The notes beneath the pieces are model-generated. The model was given only the letters and a program-made list of their open reading frames with translations, was not told the origin of the DNA and made no database searches. This document shows, piece by piece, positions 3,753-64,000 of a DNA stretch of 64,000 bases; positions within the stretch are counted from its first letter, which is position 1, and each line of letters opens with the position of its first letter. The stretch lies in assembly GCF_016903815.1 (NCBI RefSeq), contig NZ_CP069973.1. One strand, given 5' to 3'. The translations under genes and the position numbers were made by a program. The stretch is from Escherichia coli. Its GTDB lineage: Bacteria > Pseudomonadota > Gammaproteobacteria > Enterobacterales > Enterobacteriaceae.

Positions 3753-3783
3753 TACAAGCATATAAACCTGATAATGGGCGGTT

Positions 3784-3856
3784 GGCCTGATAAGGCGTTT
3801 ACGCCGCATCAGGCCGCCAGCACCGATTGCCGGATGCGAAGTAACCGCATCCGGCG
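3784..3856. repeat. REP (repetitive extragenic palindromic) elements
   Basis: Imperfect palindromes ggcctgataaggcgtttacgccgcatcaggcc and gccggatgcgaagtaaccgcatccggcg. Confidence 0.6.
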
Positions 3857-3863
3857 CAAACAA

Positions 3864-4448
3864 CTATCCCATCAGCGGGTTTTTCCCTTCCCGACGTAAC
3901 ATCTGACACAGCGCGATTAGCGGTAAACCAACCAGCGTGTTAGGATCACGCCCCTCTAAACGCTCAAACAGCGTAATGCCAAATCCTTCACTCTTAAAGC
4001 TACCCGCGCAGTGCAGGGGATGCTCTTTACGCACGTAATTATCAATCTCCGCCTCGCTCAGGTGACGGAAATGGACGTCAAAAGGCTCCACTTCTGTTTG
4101 TAGATGCCCATTCGCCGAATTAAACAACGCCAGTCCAGTATAGAAGGTGACGATATTGCCGCTGGCTTTGCGTAATTGCAGACGGGCATTTTCTTCCGTT
4201 AACGGTTTACCGGTGATTTCGCCATCAAGAACACATACCTGGTCTGAACCAATAATTAAATGATCCGGATAACGTGACGCCAGAGATTGCGCTTTTTCTT
4301 GTGCCAGTCGAAGCACCAACTGTCGCGGTGATTCGTCGCTGCGTGGGGTTTCGTCGACCTCTGGTGCTGCACATTCAAAAGAGATTTGCAGTTTTTCCAG
4401 AAGAGCGCGACGCCAGGGCGAGGTGGAGGCTAAAATAAGTTTAGGCAT
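3864..4448 (-). CDS. yceF: Maf-like nucleotide pyrophosphatase YceF
   Basis: ORF 3864-4487; start placed at internal Met ([14 protein letters not shown]) giving 194 aa. Confidence 0.88.
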
Positions 4449-4634
4449 ATTTTTTTCCATCAGATATAGCGTATTGATGATAGCCATTTTAAACTATGCG
4501 CTTCGTTTTGCAGGTTGATGTTCGTTATCAGCACTGAACGAAAATAAAGCAGTAACCCGCAATGTGTGCGAATTATTGGCAAAAGGCAACCACAGGCTGC
4601 CTTTTTCTTTGACTCTATGACGTTACAAAGTTAA

Positions 4635-5168
<534 letters not shown>

Positions 5169-5207
5169 TTGGTGCTCCCCGTTGGATCGGGGATAAACCG
5201 TAATTGA

Positions 5208-5393
<186 letters not shown>

Positions 5394-5473
5394 TCACGCG
5401 TCTGCGTGATGAAGCTTAGTGAGGATTTTCCCCAGGCAACTGGGGAAAGACCAAACCGGGCGGCGACGATACC

Positions 5474-6544
5474 TTGACACGTCTAACCCTGGCGTTAGAT
5501 GTCATGGGAGGGGATTTTGGCCCTTCCGTGACAGTGCCTGCAGCATTGCAGGCACTGAATTCTAATTCGCAACTCACTCTTCTTTTAGTCGGCAATCCCG
5601 ACGCCATCACGCCATTGCTTGCTAAAGCTGACTTTGAACAACGTTCGCGTCTGCAGATTATTCCTGCGCAGTCAGTTATCGCCAGTGATGCCCGGCCTTC
5701 GCAAGCTATCCGCGCCAGTCGTGGGAGTTCAATGCGCGTGGCCCTGGAGCTGGTGAAAGAAGGTCGAGCGCAAGCCTGTGTCAGTGCCGGTAATACCGGG
5801 GCGCTGATGGGGCTGGCAAAATTATTACTCAAGCCCCTGGAGGGGATTGAGCGTCCGGCGCTGGTGACGGTATTACCGCATCAGCAAAAGGGCAAAACGG
5901 TGGTCCTCGATTTAGGGGCCAACGTCGATTGTGACAGCACAATGTTGGTGCAATTTGCCATTATGGGCTCAGTCCTGGCTGAAGAGGTGGTGGAAATTCC
6001 CAATCCTCGCGTGGCGTTGCTCAATATTGGTGAAGAAGAAGTAAAGGGTCTCGACAGTATTCGGGATGCCTCAGCGGTGCTTAAAACAATCCCTTCTATC
6101 AATTATATCGGCTATCTTGAAGCCAATGAGTTGTTAACTGGCAAGACAGATGTGCTGGTTTGTGACGGCTTTACAGGAAATGTCACATTAAAGACGATGG
6201 AAGGTGTTGTCAGGATGTTCCTTTCTCTGCTGAAATCTCAGGGTGAAGGGAAAAAACGGTCGTGGTGGCTACTGTTATTAAAGCGTTGGCTACAAAAGAG
6301 CCTGACGAGGCGATTCAGTCACCTCAACCCCGACCAGTATAACGGCGCCTGTCTGTTAGGATTGCGCGGCACGGTGATAAAAAGTCATGGTGCAGCCAAT
6401 CAGCGAGCTTTTGCGGTCGCGATTGAACAGGCAGTGCAGGCGGTGCAGCGACAAGTTCCTCAGCGAATTGCCGCTCGCCTGGAATCTGTATACCCAGCTG
6501 GTTTTGAGCTGCTGGACGGTGGCAAAAGCGGAACTCTGCGGTAG
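5474..6544 (+). CDS. plsX: Phosphate acyltransferase PlsX
   Basis: 356-aa ORF, PlsX family, first gene of fab cluster. Confidence 0.93.
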
Positions 6545-9257: not shown

Positions 9258-9467
9258 CCGCGATTTGCACAAAATGCTCATGTTGCGCGCAGTCTGCGTG
9301 GTTATGAGTAATAATTAGTGCAAAATGATTTGCGTTATTGGGGGGTAAGGCCTCAAAATAACGTAAAATCGTGGTAAGACCTGCCGGGATTTAGTTGCAA
9401 ATTTTTCAACATTTTATACACTACGAAAACCATCGCGAAAGCGAGTTTTGATAGGAAATTTAAGAGT

Positions 9468-9704
9468 ATGAGCACTATCGAAGAACGCGTTAAGAAAATT
9501 ATCGGCGAACAGCTGGGCGTTAAGCAGGAAGAAGTTACCAACAATGCTTCTTTCGTTGAAGACCTGGGCGCGGATTCTCTTGACACCGTTGAGCTGGTAA
9601 TGGCTCTGGAAGAAGAGTTTGATACTGAGATTCCGGACGAAGAAGCTGAGAAAATCACCACCGTTCAGGCTGCCATTGATTACATCAACGGCCACCAGGC
9701 GTAA
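9468..9704 (+). CDS. acpP: Acyl carrier protein
   Basis: 78-aa ORF with [12 protein letters not shown] phosphopantetheine-attachment motif. Confidence 0.96.
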
Positions 9705-59374: not shown

Positions 59375-60056
59375 CCAGTATTTACAGTTTGTTCGTGAGC
59401 AACTCATGATTGCCACTGCAGATCTCAGTGGGTCGACAAAATGCCAGCTGGAAGCCTGGCAGGAAAATGCCCTGTTCGATACAGGGCGTTACAGACGCAA
59501 AAAAATTCGTTACCGCGATGAGGTAACCGGAAAAATGATCACGCGGGATAATCCCCCGATCCAGGGTAAACAATCACTGGCGAAAGGCTCATCAATTGCG
59601 CTGGTCAGTCCTGTTGAGTTTGCAACATCATCGTGGCGGCGTGCTGTTCTGGAACTGGAAGAACATCAGAAGGCGTGGTTGTTGTGGTGTTATGGCGGAA
59701 ACATTTGCTGGGAGCATCAGATCGCGATAACGCAGTGGGGGTGGAGTGAATTTAAAACTCAGTCCGGCTCCAGAAAAATTGCAGTGAAAACGCTGGAGCG
59801 TGTGAAGAAGTTGATCTGGCTGGCGGCACAGGATGTCAGAGGATGGGTTACCGGGTGTGAGGTCTACCAGAGACAGGAGCTTGCCAGACTGTGTGGAGTT
59901 AAGCCTGATAACTGGAGCCATAATTATGCGAACTACTGGCGTGAGATGTGCGATATTTTTAAGCGCCTCGATAGAGAATCCTTGATTTGCTCCGTGAAAA
60001 TAAGAGCGCAACAAAAAGCGACCTTTTCACGACGAGATATTGCAAAAGTCAATTAA
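59367..60056 (+). CDS. Putative late-gene antiterminator (Q-like)
   Basis: 229 aa, overlapping rusA stop, directly upstream of a tR'-like terminator and the lysis genes; assigned by position. Confidence 0.5.
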   Translation: MNNQYLQFVREQLMIATADLSGSTKCQLEAWQENALFDTGRYRRKKIRYRDEVTGKMITRDNPPIQGKQSLAKGSSIALVSPVEFATSSWRRAVLELEEHQKAWLLWCYGGNICWEHQIAITQWGWSEFKTQSGSRKIAVKTLERVKKLIWLAAQDVRGWVTGCEVYQRQELARLCGVKPDNWSHNYANYWREMCDIFKRLDRESLICSVKIRAQQKATFSRRDIAKVN

Positions 60057-60117
60057 ATCGCGTATGTTTCGTATAAATCTGATATTTTGCCGATTTTGTA
60101 CGTGATGGCAAAGTAAG

Positions 60118-60146
60118 AAAAAACCACCGCCAGGTGGTTTTTTTTA
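60118..60146 (+). terminator. tR'-like rho-independent terminator downstream of Q
   Basis: gaaaaaaaccaccgccaggtggttttttttat. Confidence 0.75.
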
Positions 60147-60268
60147 TGTCCGAAAATCGCGTCAGTACAGTAAACGCGCTGGTGGTTGCGAATACGGGTC
60201 TTTCAGCTTGCCGGCTTTTTCGACAAGAGTTATTGGTATGTCACGTTAACCGGAAAAGGGAAAAAGAC

Positions 60269-60466
60269 ATGCTAAAACAGCAGGATATGACAGAAGCCGC
60301 CAGAGTGGTGTTTAATGAATTAAGCGTTACCGACCCGGCGACAGTCAGGGAGATTGCACAGAATACTTACCTTTCACGCGAACGCTGCCAGTTAATACTG
60401 ACCCAGCTTGTTATGGCGGGTCTGGCAGACTATCAGTTTGGTTGTTACAGACACCTTCAGTCCTGA
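60269..60466 (+). CDS. Hypothetical small protein
   Basis: 65 aa from ATG 60269 (MLKQQDMTEAARVV...) with RBS aaggg; stop lies inside a terminator hairpin. Confidence 0.35.
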   Translation: MLKQQDMTEAARVVFNELSVTDPATVREIAQNTYLSRERCQLILTQLVMAGLADYQFGCYRHLQS

Positions 60467-60478
60467 AGGCTTTTTTAT
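60454..60478 (+). terminator. Rho-independent terminator
   Basis: ccttcagtcctgaaggcttttttattt. Confidence 0.6.
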
Positions 60479-60835
60479 TTGTGGTAAATGGGCGGCTGGT
60501 GGGTGTGGTGGTTGTTGCTTTCCCGTTGCTGAAAAAGAAAACGCCAGACTGTTAGCCGGGTATCAGTTAGCGGGAGAAATTTTTAAATACTTCACAATTC
60601 AGGCGGTTGACTGTTGTCTGGTTTGCGGGGAGTTTGTTAAAAGAAACTGGCATGGTGAATCCCCCTGTGCGGAGGGGCAATCAGCGAGTAGGTATATGGG
60701 ATAATCGCGGATTCAGGTGCTGGTACTGAATTCACCGGGAGGCACCCGGCACCATGCAATGGCACATAGCGCCACTCTCCAGCCCCTCTCCGGAGGGGCT
60801 GTTTATATTGATTTTGTCAGATGTGAGTAAACTCC

Positions 60836-61171
60836 TTATGGACTTTGTTGTTTTAGCCCATAAGGACATATTTGCAGAGTGCAACGATTATTAAAGCATT
60901 CATTCAATACGTTATCTGTATTTGTAGGGCATTCCTGGCTGTTTTTGATTAAATTCCAGAATGTTTTATTGAATGGTACTACGTTGTAAATGGTTACAGG
61001 TAGCACTTTGTTATTGAGCATGATACCTGTGTGAGTCAGTGTAAATATACTTTCAGGAGGTAAGAAAGCATCCGATTGATACCAGATTATTAATTTTATT
61101 TTACTCCATATGACTGAAAAAGATATTCCGCATGATGGCTGGATAACTGTATCAATCACAATCCACTTCAT
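60836..61171 (-). CDS. Hypothetical protein in AT-rich island (antisense to the late operon)
   Basis: 111-aa ORF open despite AT-rich (stop-codon-prone) sequence; four Cys in the C-terminal third; AT-rich upstream region. Confidence 0.4.
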
Positions 61172-61416
61172 TTAGTTTCCTTGTTTATGCCTTGCTGGTG
61201 ATGTTCTGAAAAGTATAAATGATATTTTTGATTGTAAACCATAGAGCAGAATTATTTTTCTGATGTTGTTTATTGTTTATTTAAATGCAGGGTGGTTTAT
61301 ATCTCGTCTTGTAGTTTATCCATGCATATCTGCTTGATGATGAGGTTTTTATTTAAGGTATGGTTTTGTGTTTTTTCTGTATTACATGTCAGGTATTTTA
61401 AAGAATCATTTTTCAG

Positions 61417-61620
61417 ATGGTGGAAAGAACCATGGCATTTAAACACTATGATGTTGTCAGGGCGGCGTCGCCGTCAGATCTTGCGGAAAAGCTGACACAT
61501 AAACTGAAAGAGGGCTGGCAGCCGTTTGGTAGTCCGGTGGCCATAACCCCTTATACCCTGATGCAGGCGATTGCAGCAGAAGGTGATGTGGTGGTCAGTG
61601 GTGCAACTGAGCCGGAGTGA
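61417..61620 (+). CDS. Hypothetical small protein
   Basis: 67-aa ORF; stop overlaps the next small ORF start (GTGA). Confidence 0.4.
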   Translation: MVERTMAFKHYDVVRAASPSDLAEKLTHKLKEGWQPFGSPVAITPYTLMQAIAAEGDVVVSGATEPE

Positions 61621-61778
61621 TACTACGTCATCGTACTGGCCCGGCATTCCAGGCCATAAAAGACGGTCTGGCAGTGGGACTAAATGCACTGACGCTGACG
61701 GATATTACCAAAAATGCAACGTATGGCGTTGAGATAGAAAGTCTGGTGCTGGAGATAAATGCACCGGCATCATCATAA
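61617..61778 (+). CDS. Hypothetical small protein (translationally coupled)
   Basis: Hand-translated 53-codon frame from GTG 61617; below the ORF-track cutoff. Confidence 0.25.
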
Positions 61779-61927
61779 AAAGTGAGCCAGTCAAATGGAA
61801 GGTATCGTTAAACTCACCGGTAGTGTCAGTGGGTCGTCTGAGACGCCTGCATGAGTTATCAGAGCCATCAGTACTTAACTGGTGGCTTTTTTATTGTTGT
61901 CAGCTTCCGGATAACGGGAGACGGGGT

Positions 61928-62143
61928 ATGTACCAGATGGAAAAAATCACAACAGGTGTGTCATACACCACGTCAGCGGTGGGAACGGGCTACTGGTTCC
62001 TGCAGTTGCTGGACAGGGTTTCCCCGTCTCAGTGGGCGGCAATAGGCGTGCTGGGGAGTCTGCTGTTTGGGCTGCTGACATATCTGACTAACCTGTATTT
62101 CAAAATCAAAGAGGACCGGCGTAAGGCGGCGCGGGGAGAGTAA
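61928..62143 (+). CDS. S: Class II pinholin, phage 21 S-type
   Basis: [51 protein letters not shown] closely matches recalled S21; dual start motif M-Y-Q-M at 61928/61937. Confidence 0.88.
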
Positions 62144-62147
62144 AGTG

Positions 62148-63038
62148 ATGAATAAAAAATATGAACTGGTTGTTAAGGGGATAAATAATTACGGGGATAA
62201 GGTTACTGTTACTGTGAAGTCGGAAGGTGACGGGCAAGCGTCGCTGTTGTTGCCAGATGTGGCGATTAGTCTTGACCGTACTGAAGGTGCCACGCTGGAG
62301 TTTTACGAAGCTGAGGCGAAAAAGCAGGCGAAGCAGTTTTTCATGGATGTTGCTGCCGGGTTATGTGAATGGAACGAACCGTTGCCGGAAAAGCGCCCCG
62401 TAATTTTAGAGGCGCAGGATGTGTTGATAACCTACAAAGGAAAGCTACCGGGAAGAATTACTTGTTCTCTGAAGATGCCGCCGTCAACACTGCGGTCAGA
62501 AAAAGATGATGTTGAATCACGTATTGAAAAACTGGAGAGCTACGTCGTTGAGCTGAATAAGAAATGGTCGATATTGGTGCCTTCTGGCGATGAAAAGCAG
62601 TTTGCTGCGTTTGACGATTATTGTCGGAAAGTGATGAGCAGAAATCTCGCAGAGTGTTTCAGTATTCATAATGATAATTTCAGTGACCCGGAATGGGAGT
62701 GTAACCGGCCATCCTTTGTTGTATCCGGTGATGCTGGGAAAATAACCATCTCAGAAAATGGGAAAGTAACACCTCCATCGCACCAGCACAGTGAGGAGCT
62801 CATTGAATTTGCCATTGATTACCTGAAGAACAATAAAAAGCAGGGGCTGATGAAGCGCGTTGGCCGTTGCATGGGATATCTTCAGGTAGCCGCTGAGATT
62901 GAAGCGCTGGCCAGTGGTGCTGATAAGGATGCAATTGTGCGGGAGGCTCTTCTTCGTGATTTTAATACTCCACCCTTTAAAAAAGTGCCGGCTTACTGGC
63001 TTCATCCGGGGCTGACTTATCTTAAAGTGCGTATTTAG
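62148..63038 (+). CDS. Hypothetical 296-aa protein inserted between holin and endolysin
   Basis: ATG 62148 five nt after the holin stop with RBS ggggagag; no recognised catalytic motif. Confidence 0.6.
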   Translation: MNKKYELVVKGINNYGDKVTVTVKSEGDGQASLLLPDVAISLDRTEGATLEFYEAEAKKQAKQFFMDVAAGLCEWNEPLPEKRPVILEAQDVLITYKGKLPGRITCSLKMPPSTLRSEKDDVESRIEKLESYVVELNKKWSILVPSGDEKQFAAFDDYCRKVMSRNLAECFSIHNDNFSDPEWECNRPSFVVSGDAGKITISENGKVTPPSHQHSEELIEFAIDYLKNNKKQGLMKRVGRCMGYLQVAAEIEALASGADKDAIVREALLRDFNTPPFKKVPAYWLHPGLTYLKVRI

Positions 63039-63074
63039 TGGGCCAGGGACAGCGGCTGAATATTTAATATATCC

Positions 63075-63608
63075 ATGAACACCAAAATCAAATACGGCCT
63101 GTCGGCTGCCGTTCTGGCGCTGATTGCCGCTGGTGCGCCTGCGCCTGACATTCTCGACCAGTTTCTGGATGAAAAGGAAGGCAACCACACCACGGCATAC
63201 CGTGATGGTGCAGGTATCTGGACCATCTGCCGTGGTGCCATCATGGTGGATGGCAAACCTGTCGTTCCGGGCATGAAGTTGTCGAAGGAAAAATGCGACC
63301 AGGTTAACGCCATTGAGCGTGATAAAGCGCTGGCGTGGGTGGAGAAAAACATCAGAGTGCCGCTGACCGAACCCCAGAAAGCGGGGATCGCGTCATTCTG
63401 TCCGTACAACATTGGTCCCGGTAAGTGTTTCCCGTCGACGTTTTACAGACGAATTAATGCTGGTGATCGAAAAGGTGCCTGCGAAGCGATTCGCTGGTGG
63501 ATTAAGGACGGTGGCAGAGACTGCCGTATTCGTTCAAACAACTGTTACGGTCAGGTATCCCGTCGTGACCAGGAGAGCGCGCTGGCGTGCTGGGGTATCG
63601 ACAGATAA
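63075..63608 (+). CDS. R: SAR endolysin (T4-type lysozyme, GH24)
   Basis: Gly/Ala-rich N-terminal SAR segment; catalytic E-x8-D-x5-T (EGNHTTAYRDGAGIWT). Confidence 0.88.
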   Translation: MNTKIKYGLSAAVLALIAAGAPAPDILDQFLDEKEGNHTTAYRDGAGIWTICRGAIMVDGKPVVPGMKLSKEKCDQVNAIERDKALAWVEKNIRVPLTEPQKAGIASFCPYNIGPGKCFPSTFYRRINAGDRKGACEAIRWWIKDGGRDCRIRSNNCYGQVSRRDQESALACWGIDR

Positions 63609-63765
63609 GCAGAATATTTTGCTGAAAAATGAGGAATGGCCACGCGGGCGGATAACACGAAATCCTGCGAACTGGCGAAACGTAAGTGAATAAAAGTAAA
63701 AACCCCGTTTGTTGGCACCAAGCGAGGTTTTGTGTTTCTGACCTTGAGTAAGGCAAGGGAGAACA

Positions 63766-63947
63766 TGGCGAAGTGTAAACGAATTCTGTTGAGGTTGACT
63801 ATGAAAAATGGCCTTGAACTGAAAGCGCCTGTAACTGATGACATCAGCAGAGCACTGGCTTTTGCCATTAAGTGGGTGGCGGTCGGTGTTGCTGTGTCCC
63901 CGATGCTGTATGGGCTGGCAAAACTGGTCATTGCGTTGAAATCGTGA
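63766..63947 (+). CDS. Putative small membrane protein downstream of endolysin
   Basis: 59 aa from ATG 63766; C-terminal hydrophobic segment; does not look like Rz/Rz1. Confidence 0.3.
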
Positions 63948-64000
63948 AGGGAGGATTAAGCATGTCAGACAAACTCATAACGCTGGCGAAGATCCTCTGT

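Follow-up and report, generated by a model that had tools for sequence, protein, structure and literature searches.

A long, modular YdfR family protein between the holin and endolysin genes of an Escherichia coli lambdoid prophage

For the YdfR family, the only experimental data come from an RNase E study of YdfR from the Qin prophage of Escherichia coli K-12 (PMC13232886). Here, YdfR was recovered in a two-hybrid screen and binds RNase E 1-597, Rne 1-598 co-purifies with Strep-tagged YdfR, and residues 1-72 of YdfR suffice for the interaction (PMC13232886). Furthermore, YdfR co-purifies with RNA and its eluate carries DNase-resistant nucleic acid, and ydfR itself is nearly silent, with almost no reads under standard growth (PMC13232886). 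Qin YdfR comprises 103 amino acids (aa), that is the domain plus one helix, and is encoded between the S21-type holin gene essQ and the lysozyme gene rrrQ. It starts 4-5 nucleotides (nt) after the holin stop, and its own stop overlaps the lysozyme start. The present work deals with a 296-aa protein encoded in the same slot of a lambdoid prophage, on a stretch of 64,000 nt of E. coli DNA (contig NZ_CP069973.1 of assembly GCF_016903815.1), which as a whole is called the window.

As judged from its family matches and its predicted structure, this protein is near certainly a long, modular member of the YdfR/DUF1327 family. Its gene belongs to a large set of shuffled variants that occupy the gap between the genes for the holin (S) and the endolysin (R) in most E. 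coli phages with this holin. The gene, its name and the family of its N-terminal domain are already catalogued; the long-form architecture, the orphan C-terminal domain and the filling of the S-R gap are undescribed in the literature searched, where no paper links ydfR to a holin and DUF1327 is mentioned once, in passing.

The gene and its protein

The Pfam family DUF1327 (PF07041) matches residues 1-100 of the protein (model positions 1-88 of 93, E 2.1e-40), and residues 1-74 are 47% identical to K-12 YdfR (P76160). The 296-position profile PHROG 1085 matches end to end (residues 1-296, E 3.1e-190), and partial matches cover residues 1-113 (PHROG 406), 1-176 (PHROG 2091), 120-233 (PHROG 36381) and 235-296 (PHROG 26186). 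The helical region is matched by PHROG 36381 together with PHROG 15975, and all nine PHROG matches are labelled 'unknown function'. Identical and near-identical 296-aa proteins are named 'YdfR family protein' by NCBI, and long forms of 268-333 aa are common under this name. Instead of the single-domain size of about 100 aa seen in the K-12 type member, the protein has 296 aa with three further modules, and its gene lies between a class II holin and a lysozyme of a lambdoid prophage. DUF1327 is the sole family match in Pfam, NCBIfam and PADLOC, which gave no enzymatic, Walker or helix-turn-helix (HTH) signature; within NCBIfam, neither the protein nor five of its homologues has a match.

The annotation of this sequence in RefSeq is inconsistent, as it appears either as a 296-aa protein or as a 112-codon pseudogene. 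On an identical locus (L001), the Prokaryotic Genome Annotation Pipeline (PGAP) calls only codons 1-112 (9349-9684, corresponding to window positions 62148-62483) and labels them 'YdfR family protein' pseudogene, 'incomplete, missing C-terminus', so that codons 113-296 are unannotated.

The 296-codon open reading frame (ORF) is confirmed as a real gene. At least 1000 public contigs encode the identical 296-aa sequence, and of 5426 complete E. coli genomes, 548 contain the 1.9-kb cassette with ≥80% of its length covered. Database searches gave 204 relatives of the protein at E ≤ 0.001. The C-terminal 114 codons have a ratio of nonsynonymous to synonymous substitution rates (dN/dS) of 0.16-0.36 against five diverged alleles (Nei-Gojobori), and the C-domain is under purifying selection. 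Among close alleles of the N-domain, dN/dS is raised to 0.5-1.3, values that come from few substitutions between recombining alleles, and the variable positions cluster at residues ~14-38; for the linker, dN/dS is ~0.3-1.5, from only 2-9 substitutions of either kind. An opposite-strand ORF of 145 codons (62751-63188, minus strand) was rejected as a gene, having no PHROG match and lying against a plus frame that is under purifying selection. The GC content and the GC content of third codon positions (GC3) are 46% and 47% in the 296-codon ORF, 54% and 68% in the holin gene and 54.5% and 60% in the lysozyme gene, and the coiled-coil part of the ORF stands at 41% in this comparison. The lower GC content of the ORF fits an inserted module.

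The ORF starts with ATG at 62148, with an in-frame GTG at 62145, and ends with TAG at 63036-63038. Its ATG lies 5 nt downstream of the holin stop TAA (62141-62143), and the Shine-Dalgarno sequence GGGGAGAG is part of the holin 3' end (Table 1). At the other side, 36 nt separate the end of the ORF from the endolysin start. The holin of the window matches PHROG 9876 (E 2e-40) and PHROG 20, both holin families, and is called 'class II holin family protein' in RefSeq; Pfam Phage_holin_2_1 (PF04971) is present in holins identical to it. The N-terminus of the endolysin, MNTKIKYGLSAAVLALIAAGAPAP, reads as hydrophobic and rich in Gly and Ala, and the spacing of its residues E35, D44 and T50 is that of the signal-anchor-release (SAR) endolysin R21. 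A gene for a Q antiterminator lies 1.9 kb upstream of the cassette, and terminase, portal and capsid genes follow downstream. This places the cassette in the late operon of a lambdoid prophage. Thus, the gene sits in the late, Q-dependent operon and has its start behind the strong ribosome-binding site with which the holin gene ends. A consensus scan of 59900-64000 gave no promoter-like site on the plus strand; therefore, expression in the lysogen is not expected.

An earlier note, made from the sequence alone, had already described a 296-aa ORF wedged between a pinholin and a SAR endolysin, starting 5 nt after the holin stop with a strong ribosome-binding site and embedded in a late lysis cassette. 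Coordinates, PHROG matches and the position of Q and the late genes agree with this, and its remark that no hydrolase, Walker or HTH motif is present holds as well for Pfam, NCBIfam and PADLOC. However, the note could place the protein in no family, and this has to be revised in view of DUF1327, PHROG 1085 and the existing NCBI name. For the C-domain, Foldseek and profile comparisons gave no PDB or Pfam relative; the N-domain belongs to DUF1327, itself an uncharacterised family. The note had suggested a lysis-timing regulator, a moron or a defence factor; each of these is a mere possibility, and the one lead from experiments is a different one, the binding of RNase E. Similarly, the note's comparison with Qin ydfR was right in slot and in the about threefold greater length, but the likeness goes beyond position, since the N-domains are homologous.

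Architecturally, the protein is predicted to be soluble and cytoplasmic and to be a mosaic of four parts (Table 1). A full-length AlphaFold2 model was built on an alignment of 33 sequences. The N-domain is modelled with three strands (residues 5-14, 18-27 and 38-43) and a long helix (residues 50-76), with block means of the predicted local distance difference test (pLDDT) of ~73-95. Among relatives, the linker is kept or lost as a unit. The first helix of the following region has the a/d heptad pattern of a coiled coil (V122, I126, L129, V133, L136, W140, L143). The C-domain reaches pLDDT 80-97 in the full-length model (residues ~188-296) and, when modelled alone on an alignment of 20 sequences, pLDDT 88.9 with a predicted template modelling score of 0.81. 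Its predicted fold consists of a three-strand meander, three helices, an extended tail and a short terminal helix. The tail is conserved as PPFK..P..W..PG..YLK.R, and L226, G239, R240, L245, Q246, A248, P276, K278, W284, P287 and Y291 are invariant over homologues 31-40% identical to the C-domain of the window. The isoelectric points (pI) differ between the parts: the N-domain and the coiled-coil part are acidic (4.7), the linker (9.5) and the C-domain (8.9) basic. No hydrophobic or transmembrane segment was found, the highest 19-residue Kyte-Doolittle mean being 0.75 and the AlphaFold2 model containing no hydrophobic helix.

The C-domain is a conserved domain, well folded according to the models, with neither a Pfam entry nor a structural relative. 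Pfam gave no match when the members were tried one by one, and a sequence-profile search of the PDB stayed at chance level (best E 0.04-0.13). Two candidates from such searches were rejected as insignificant and unsupported by fold searches, namely the 'Pathogenicity island protein' 8tch_A, which shares a short GRxxxLLQV motif (E 0.13-0.17), and a PhoU homologue (E 0.04). With the full-length model as query, the best Foldseek match in the PDB had an E-value of 0.57. In AFDB50, all fold matches down to E 7e-3 are 'phage protein' entries of E. coli, Shigella or Salmonella, and the next has E 1.4. An exhaustive HMMER search of 1.8 billion representative proteins returned only 25 proteins at E ≤ 0.001, and wherever a source is named, it is E. 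coli, Shigella or Salmonella; a scan of IMG/VR with the C-domain alignment gave close E. coli relatives only and did not widen this taxonomic range. As a clue from domain swaps, the alternative modules of the relatives P0057 and P0051 were searched, and neither has a Pfam family; a context look-up for P0148 gave no result.

Module shuffling between holin and endolysin

To place the gene among its relatives, 80 IMG/VR loci with a near-identical holin were surveyed, a sample biased to holins ≥99% identical to the query. A downstream lysozyme was found in 69 of them. Here, S and R are adjacent, with a gap of 4 nt, in only nine loci, and the remaining 60 contain inserts of 374-1445 nt, each with at least one module of the YdfR family. 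The N-domain is present in 51 of the 60 inserts and the C-domain in 20, and the exact 931-nt spacing of the window occurs in seven. In E. coli phages, most loci with this holin therefore have an insert in the S-R gap. The earlier note had regarded adjacent S and R genes as the norm and the intervening gene as an anomaly; for this holin type, the survey shows the opposite.

A second IMG/VR set comprised 80 loci chosen for the C-domain. Wherever the flanks are long enough, which is the case in 78 loci, the C-domain is encoded between holin and lysozyme. In the whole set, the C-domain is fused to an N-domain in 38 cases (296 or 329 aa), has no detected N-domain in 34 and is accompanied by an N-domain as a separate ORF in eight. 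Family members of 103, 162-183, 211, 246, 268, 287, 296, 305 and 325-333 aa, among others, are built of the same modules with alternative inserts, and stand-alone proteins of 185-222 aa consist of the coiled coil and the C-domain without DUF1327. Alleles recombine at conserved joints, as in P0002, which joins a K-12-type N-domain to the remainder of the window protein. Three E. coli proteins (P0047, P0054, P0063) contain an internal tandem duplication of DUF1327, with two partial copies per ORF, which again points to recombination, illegitimate or homologous, in the S-R slot.

In prophages of the Shiga toxin (Stx) type, the N and C parts are split into separate genes, and their order is reversed in comparison to the window. 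The order in L002-L005 (~3782-5847) is holin, a 213-aa protein of coiled coil and C-domain, a 75-aa DUF1327 protein, a 95-aa ORF on the minus strand, and lysozyme. In L004, genes for Shiga-toxin-like subunits (Pfam RIP and SLT_beta) lie directly upstream.

More distant homologues, in which 30-45% of the C-domain is identical and which come from Salmonella in several cases and from metagenomic contigs in others, keep the order of N-like domain, coiled coil and C-domain. The distant N-domain aligns with that of DUF1327 at an hhalign probability of 87.5% (E 4e-6), and one Salmonella relative is annotated as DUF1327. This shared layout shows the tripartite architecture to be old and not a recent accident. 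Three of the distant genes stand directly after a DUF4406 gene (Table 1), whose stop is overlapped by the start of the homologue in two loci (...AAAATGA in L092). Where the context suffices, the distant homologues lie between Q and the holin and not between S and R, one of them two genes upstream of the holin. Of the four distant loci examined, three have the gene ~1.2 kb or less upstream of a holin, the contig of the fourth being too short, and in two loci toxin-antitoxin genes adjoin the homologue. The family gene thus always keeps to the 5' portion of the late operon, close to the lysis genes, but only in E. coli does it occupy the S-R slot.

The state of the gap is also reflected in the translation signal of the endolysin. 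When S and R are adjacent, GGGGAGAG at the holin end serves the endolysin (junctions L015, L017, L035 and L058). Where an insert is present, a conserved ...CCTGATAAATATCC (or AATATATCC), or else AAATATCC, stands before the endolysin start, and there is no Shine-Dalgarno sequence. In the window, where 63039-63074 separate the ORF from the endolysin gene, AATATATCC stands before the ATG and no Shine-Dalgarno sequence is evident. Furthermore, the N-terminal allele of the endolysin is fully linked to the state of the gap (loci L010-L089): M[NS][AT]KI[KR]Y is found in 60/60 cassettes with an insert, and M[SN]RK[FL]RY in 9/9 with adjacent genes. Shared ancestry would suffice to explain this linkage.

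Several other features surround the cassette. Between Q and the holin, a minus-strand gene for 111 aa (60836-61171) is annotated in RefSeq as anti-adapter protein IraM, matches PHROG 4407 and seems to be an accessory gene of the late-operon leader. It is followed by a truncated DUF1737 ORF (61417-61617, plus strand), a RefSeq pseudogene missing its C-terminus, at the position where Stx-type loci have a full-length DUF1737-SASA-DUF6645 protein of ~650 aa. A terminator-like hairpin with a 12-bp stem and a T-rich tail (61861-61889, plus strand) lies ~40 nt 5' of the holin start, and 59900-64000 contains ten terminator-like sites compared to 3.8 expected. Between the endolysin and an Rz-type gene, a plus-strand ORF (63765-63947; 60 aa from the annotated ATG) matches PHROG 1115 and has a hydrophobic C-terminal stretch, KWVAVGVAVSPMLYGLAKLVIAL. 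Its product may be one more membrane protein encoded in the lysis region.

Table 1. Coordinates of the lysis cassette, of the parts of the YdfR family protein and of distant loci
Feature	Position	Strand	Basis or remark
Shine-Dalgarno sequence GGGGAGAG	62133-62140	+	inside holin 3' end, 7 nt before ATG 62148
Holin, S21-type class II (pinholin), 71 aa	61928-62143	+	begins MYQM, dual start M1/M4
Long-form YdfR family protein, 296 aa	62148-63038 (stop included)	+	PHROG 1085 over 1-296/296
N-domain DUF1327/YdfR, aa 1-78	62148-62381	+	PF07041; identity to YdfR; AlphaFold2
Linker, aa 79-118	62382-62501	+	predicted disordered, basic; AlphaFold2 pLDDT <50 for residues 75-120
Helical region, aa 119-182	62502-62693	+	AlphaFold2 helices 122-143, 150-172; PHROG 36381/15975
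C-domain, aa 183-296	62694-63035	+	conserved orphan domain
Endolysin, R21-type SAR, 177 aa	63075-63608	+	PHROG 7 endolysin; RefSeq 'lysozyme'; N-terminal allele MNTKIKY
Distant homologue loci after DUF4406 gene	L092 4639-5945; L007 1089-2377; L090 4689-5498		one Salmonella, two metagenomic

Possible functions

The N-domain of the window protein is homologous to the region of YdfR that binds RNase E, which leads to a model of docking on RNase E or RNA. In this model, which we put forward tentatively, the protein would be a cytoplasmic accessory factor, made late and dispensable, with RNase E or RNA as its docking partner. It would act in the last phase of the lytic cycle and outside the core lysis machinery. 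That it is dispensable and modular is supported by the nine of 69 cassettes without an insert and the 60 with varied sets of modules. As in Qin YdfR, the N-domain would bind the catalytic half of RNase E and perhaps RNA as well. The coiled coil could give multivalency, suiting the tetrameric RNase E, and the C-domain may supply a second binding or effector activity. The net outcome might be a modulation of late RNA decay; the long late transcript could be protected, for instance, or host RNA turnover disturbed. By analogy with Qin YdfR, an RNase E-directed mechanism of the window protein is possible, yet somewhat doubtful.

A number of points weigh against this model. The RNase E data stem from a homologue that is just 47% identical and were obtained under overproduction. 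Overexpression of YdfR changed few transcripts and left growth unaffected, and a contaminant as the actual RNA binder was not excluded by the authors (PMC13232886). Furthermore, nothing ties the C-domain to RNA in the searches described above, in which it had no recognisable fold relative. Since it lacks such a relative and often occurs without the N-domain, the two halves of the protein may have separate functions. Finally, a role in RNA decay leaves the placement between holin and endolysin, found in 78/78 E. coli phage loci, unexplained.

This placement speaks for a cytoplasmic regulator of the pinholin or the SAR endolysin, which we regard as unlikely. Such a regulator would bind the basic cytoplasmic tail of S21 or the N-terminus of the endolysin (MNTKIK) and tune triggering or release. 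It would then be a soluble counterpart of the antiholins or of the Mu releasin; to our knowledge, the known antiholins are membrane proteins. The 78 C-domain loci of E. coli phages with enough flank and the start 5 nt past the holin stop behind a strong Shine-Dalgarno sequence are consistent with it, but an insert is missing from 13% of the cassettes whose holin is near-identical, and many others hold the N part only or the C part only. Likewise, a distant homologue lies within ~1.2 kb upstream of the holin in three of four loci, yet these homologues are outside the S-R gap and coupled to, or placed directly after, a DUF4406 gene. The acidic N and coiled-coil parts (pI 4.7) are opposite in charge to the basic tails of S and R, and the strong Shine-Dalgarno sequence is lost from R in cassettes with an insert. 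The linkage of the endolysin allele to the insert (60/60 versus 9/9) points in the same direction, although shared ancestry explains it as well. A precedent exists in Mu gp25, which is needed for the release of a SAR endolysin via the basic residues of the endolysin's cytoplasmic tail (PMC9239132). However, Mu gp25 is described as membrane-tethered (PMC9239132), whereas the window protein has no transmembrane segment. Among the Pfam and PHROG lysis families, including DUF2730, there is no match to the 296-aa protein, and it shows no similarity to DUF2730 or any other lysis family.

Quite improbable, in our judgement, is a moron-type conflict gene (defence, anti-defence or exclusion) located at a hot spot for recombination within the late operon, whose modules would be shuffled in an arms race. 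The extreme mosaicism with its many architectures and the GC content below that of the neighbours (46% versus 54% and 54.5%) would fit this, as would the location of the distant homologues in the accessory region from Q to S with toxin-antitoxin neighbours in two loci. However, no PADLOC family is represented: the best match in PADLOC-DB v2 was PbeC (E 0.018, 11 bits), over the coiled coil at residues 119-182, and four homologues had no match. Also, the scan of 59900-64000 gave no independent promoter-like site, and Qin ydfR is almost without reads in standard growth (PMC13232886). The dN/dS of 0.5-1.3 among close N-domain alleles, with variable sites at ~14-38, would suit an arms race, but it stems from few substitutions in recombining alleles, and the C-domain is under plain purifying selection.

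A long shot is a new class of soluble lysis-cassette factor that links the pinholin and SAR endolysin to a cytoplasmic target such as RNase E, with the C-domain contacting S or R. As possible variants, it might control the synthesis or release of the endolysin, whose gene R has lost its own Shine-Dalgarno sequence in cassettes with an insert, or sense the status of RNA decay in order to set the time of lysis. A non-functional full-length product, that is a ydfR fragment joined to downstream sequence in a fusion that is accidental or in decay, as PGAP implies by calling a pseudogene of codons 1-112 only and as the many truncated or duplicated variants might suggest, is highly improbable, because 296 codons are open and identical on at least 1000 contigs, the C-domain has a dN/dS of 0.16-0.36 and a confidently predicted AlphaFold2 fold, the layout of N-domain, coiled coil and C-domain recurs at 30-45% identity in Salmonella and metagenomic relatives, and other NCBI records name the 296-aa product.

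Comparison with known systems

Among the E. coli phage loci sampled for this holin, which include Stx-converting phages, ~87% have a member of the YdfR family in the S-R gap, and ~10% of the complete E. coli genomes carry the exact long-form cassette. This makes it an abundant protein, predicted to be well folded, in a model lysis cassette, with a testable lead in RNase E. If the RNase E docking model is true for the phage proteins, it would be a late-gene modulator of host RNA decay in lambdoid phages. If, on the other hand, the protein acts on S or R, a soluble regulator would be added to the paradigm of pinholin and SAR endolysin, which would bear on the timing of lysis and on the release of toxin from Stx phages.

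In the databases, PHROG 1085, 406, 2091, 36381 and 26186 are catalogue entries only, without function, structure or literature. Lambda Ea22/ead-like proteins resemble the window protein in the style of lambdoid accessory proteins, being mosaic and centred on a coiled coil. In the window prophage, a DUF4406 gene is followed by an ead/Ea22-like gene, in the same way as a DUF4406 gene is followed by the YdfR family gene in the distant loci. Homology between the two was rejected (BLASTP E 0.3, hhalign probability 0.3%).

Accessory lysis regulators are known from several phages, among them P1 LydB, T4 RI and T4 RIII. Together with Mu gp25, these are products of additional genes in or beside lysis cassettes, and they target the holin or a SAR endolysin. 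In contrast to them, the window protein has no transmembrane segment and no match to a lysis family, and it is absent from 13% of cassettes that are near-identical in other respects.

Phage modulators of RNase E include the T7 gp0.7 kinase, T4 Srd and phiKZ Dip, of which gp0.7 and Dip target the C-terminal scaffold region of the enzyme. With the host modulators RapZ, RraA and RraB, the proposed likeness is that of a small protein docking on RNase E; similarity in sequence or fold between RNase E modulators and the window protein was not found. RapZ binds the catalytic N-terminal half of RNase E, as does Qin YdfR (PMC13232886).

Within the family, binding to RNase E has been shown for Qin YdfR only. 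In comparison to Qin YdfR, the window protein adds the linker, the coiled coil and the conserved C-domain of 114 aa, and its gene ends 36 nt before the lysozyme instead of overlapping it. Thus, K-12 YdfR represents just one module of a larger, conserved architecture.

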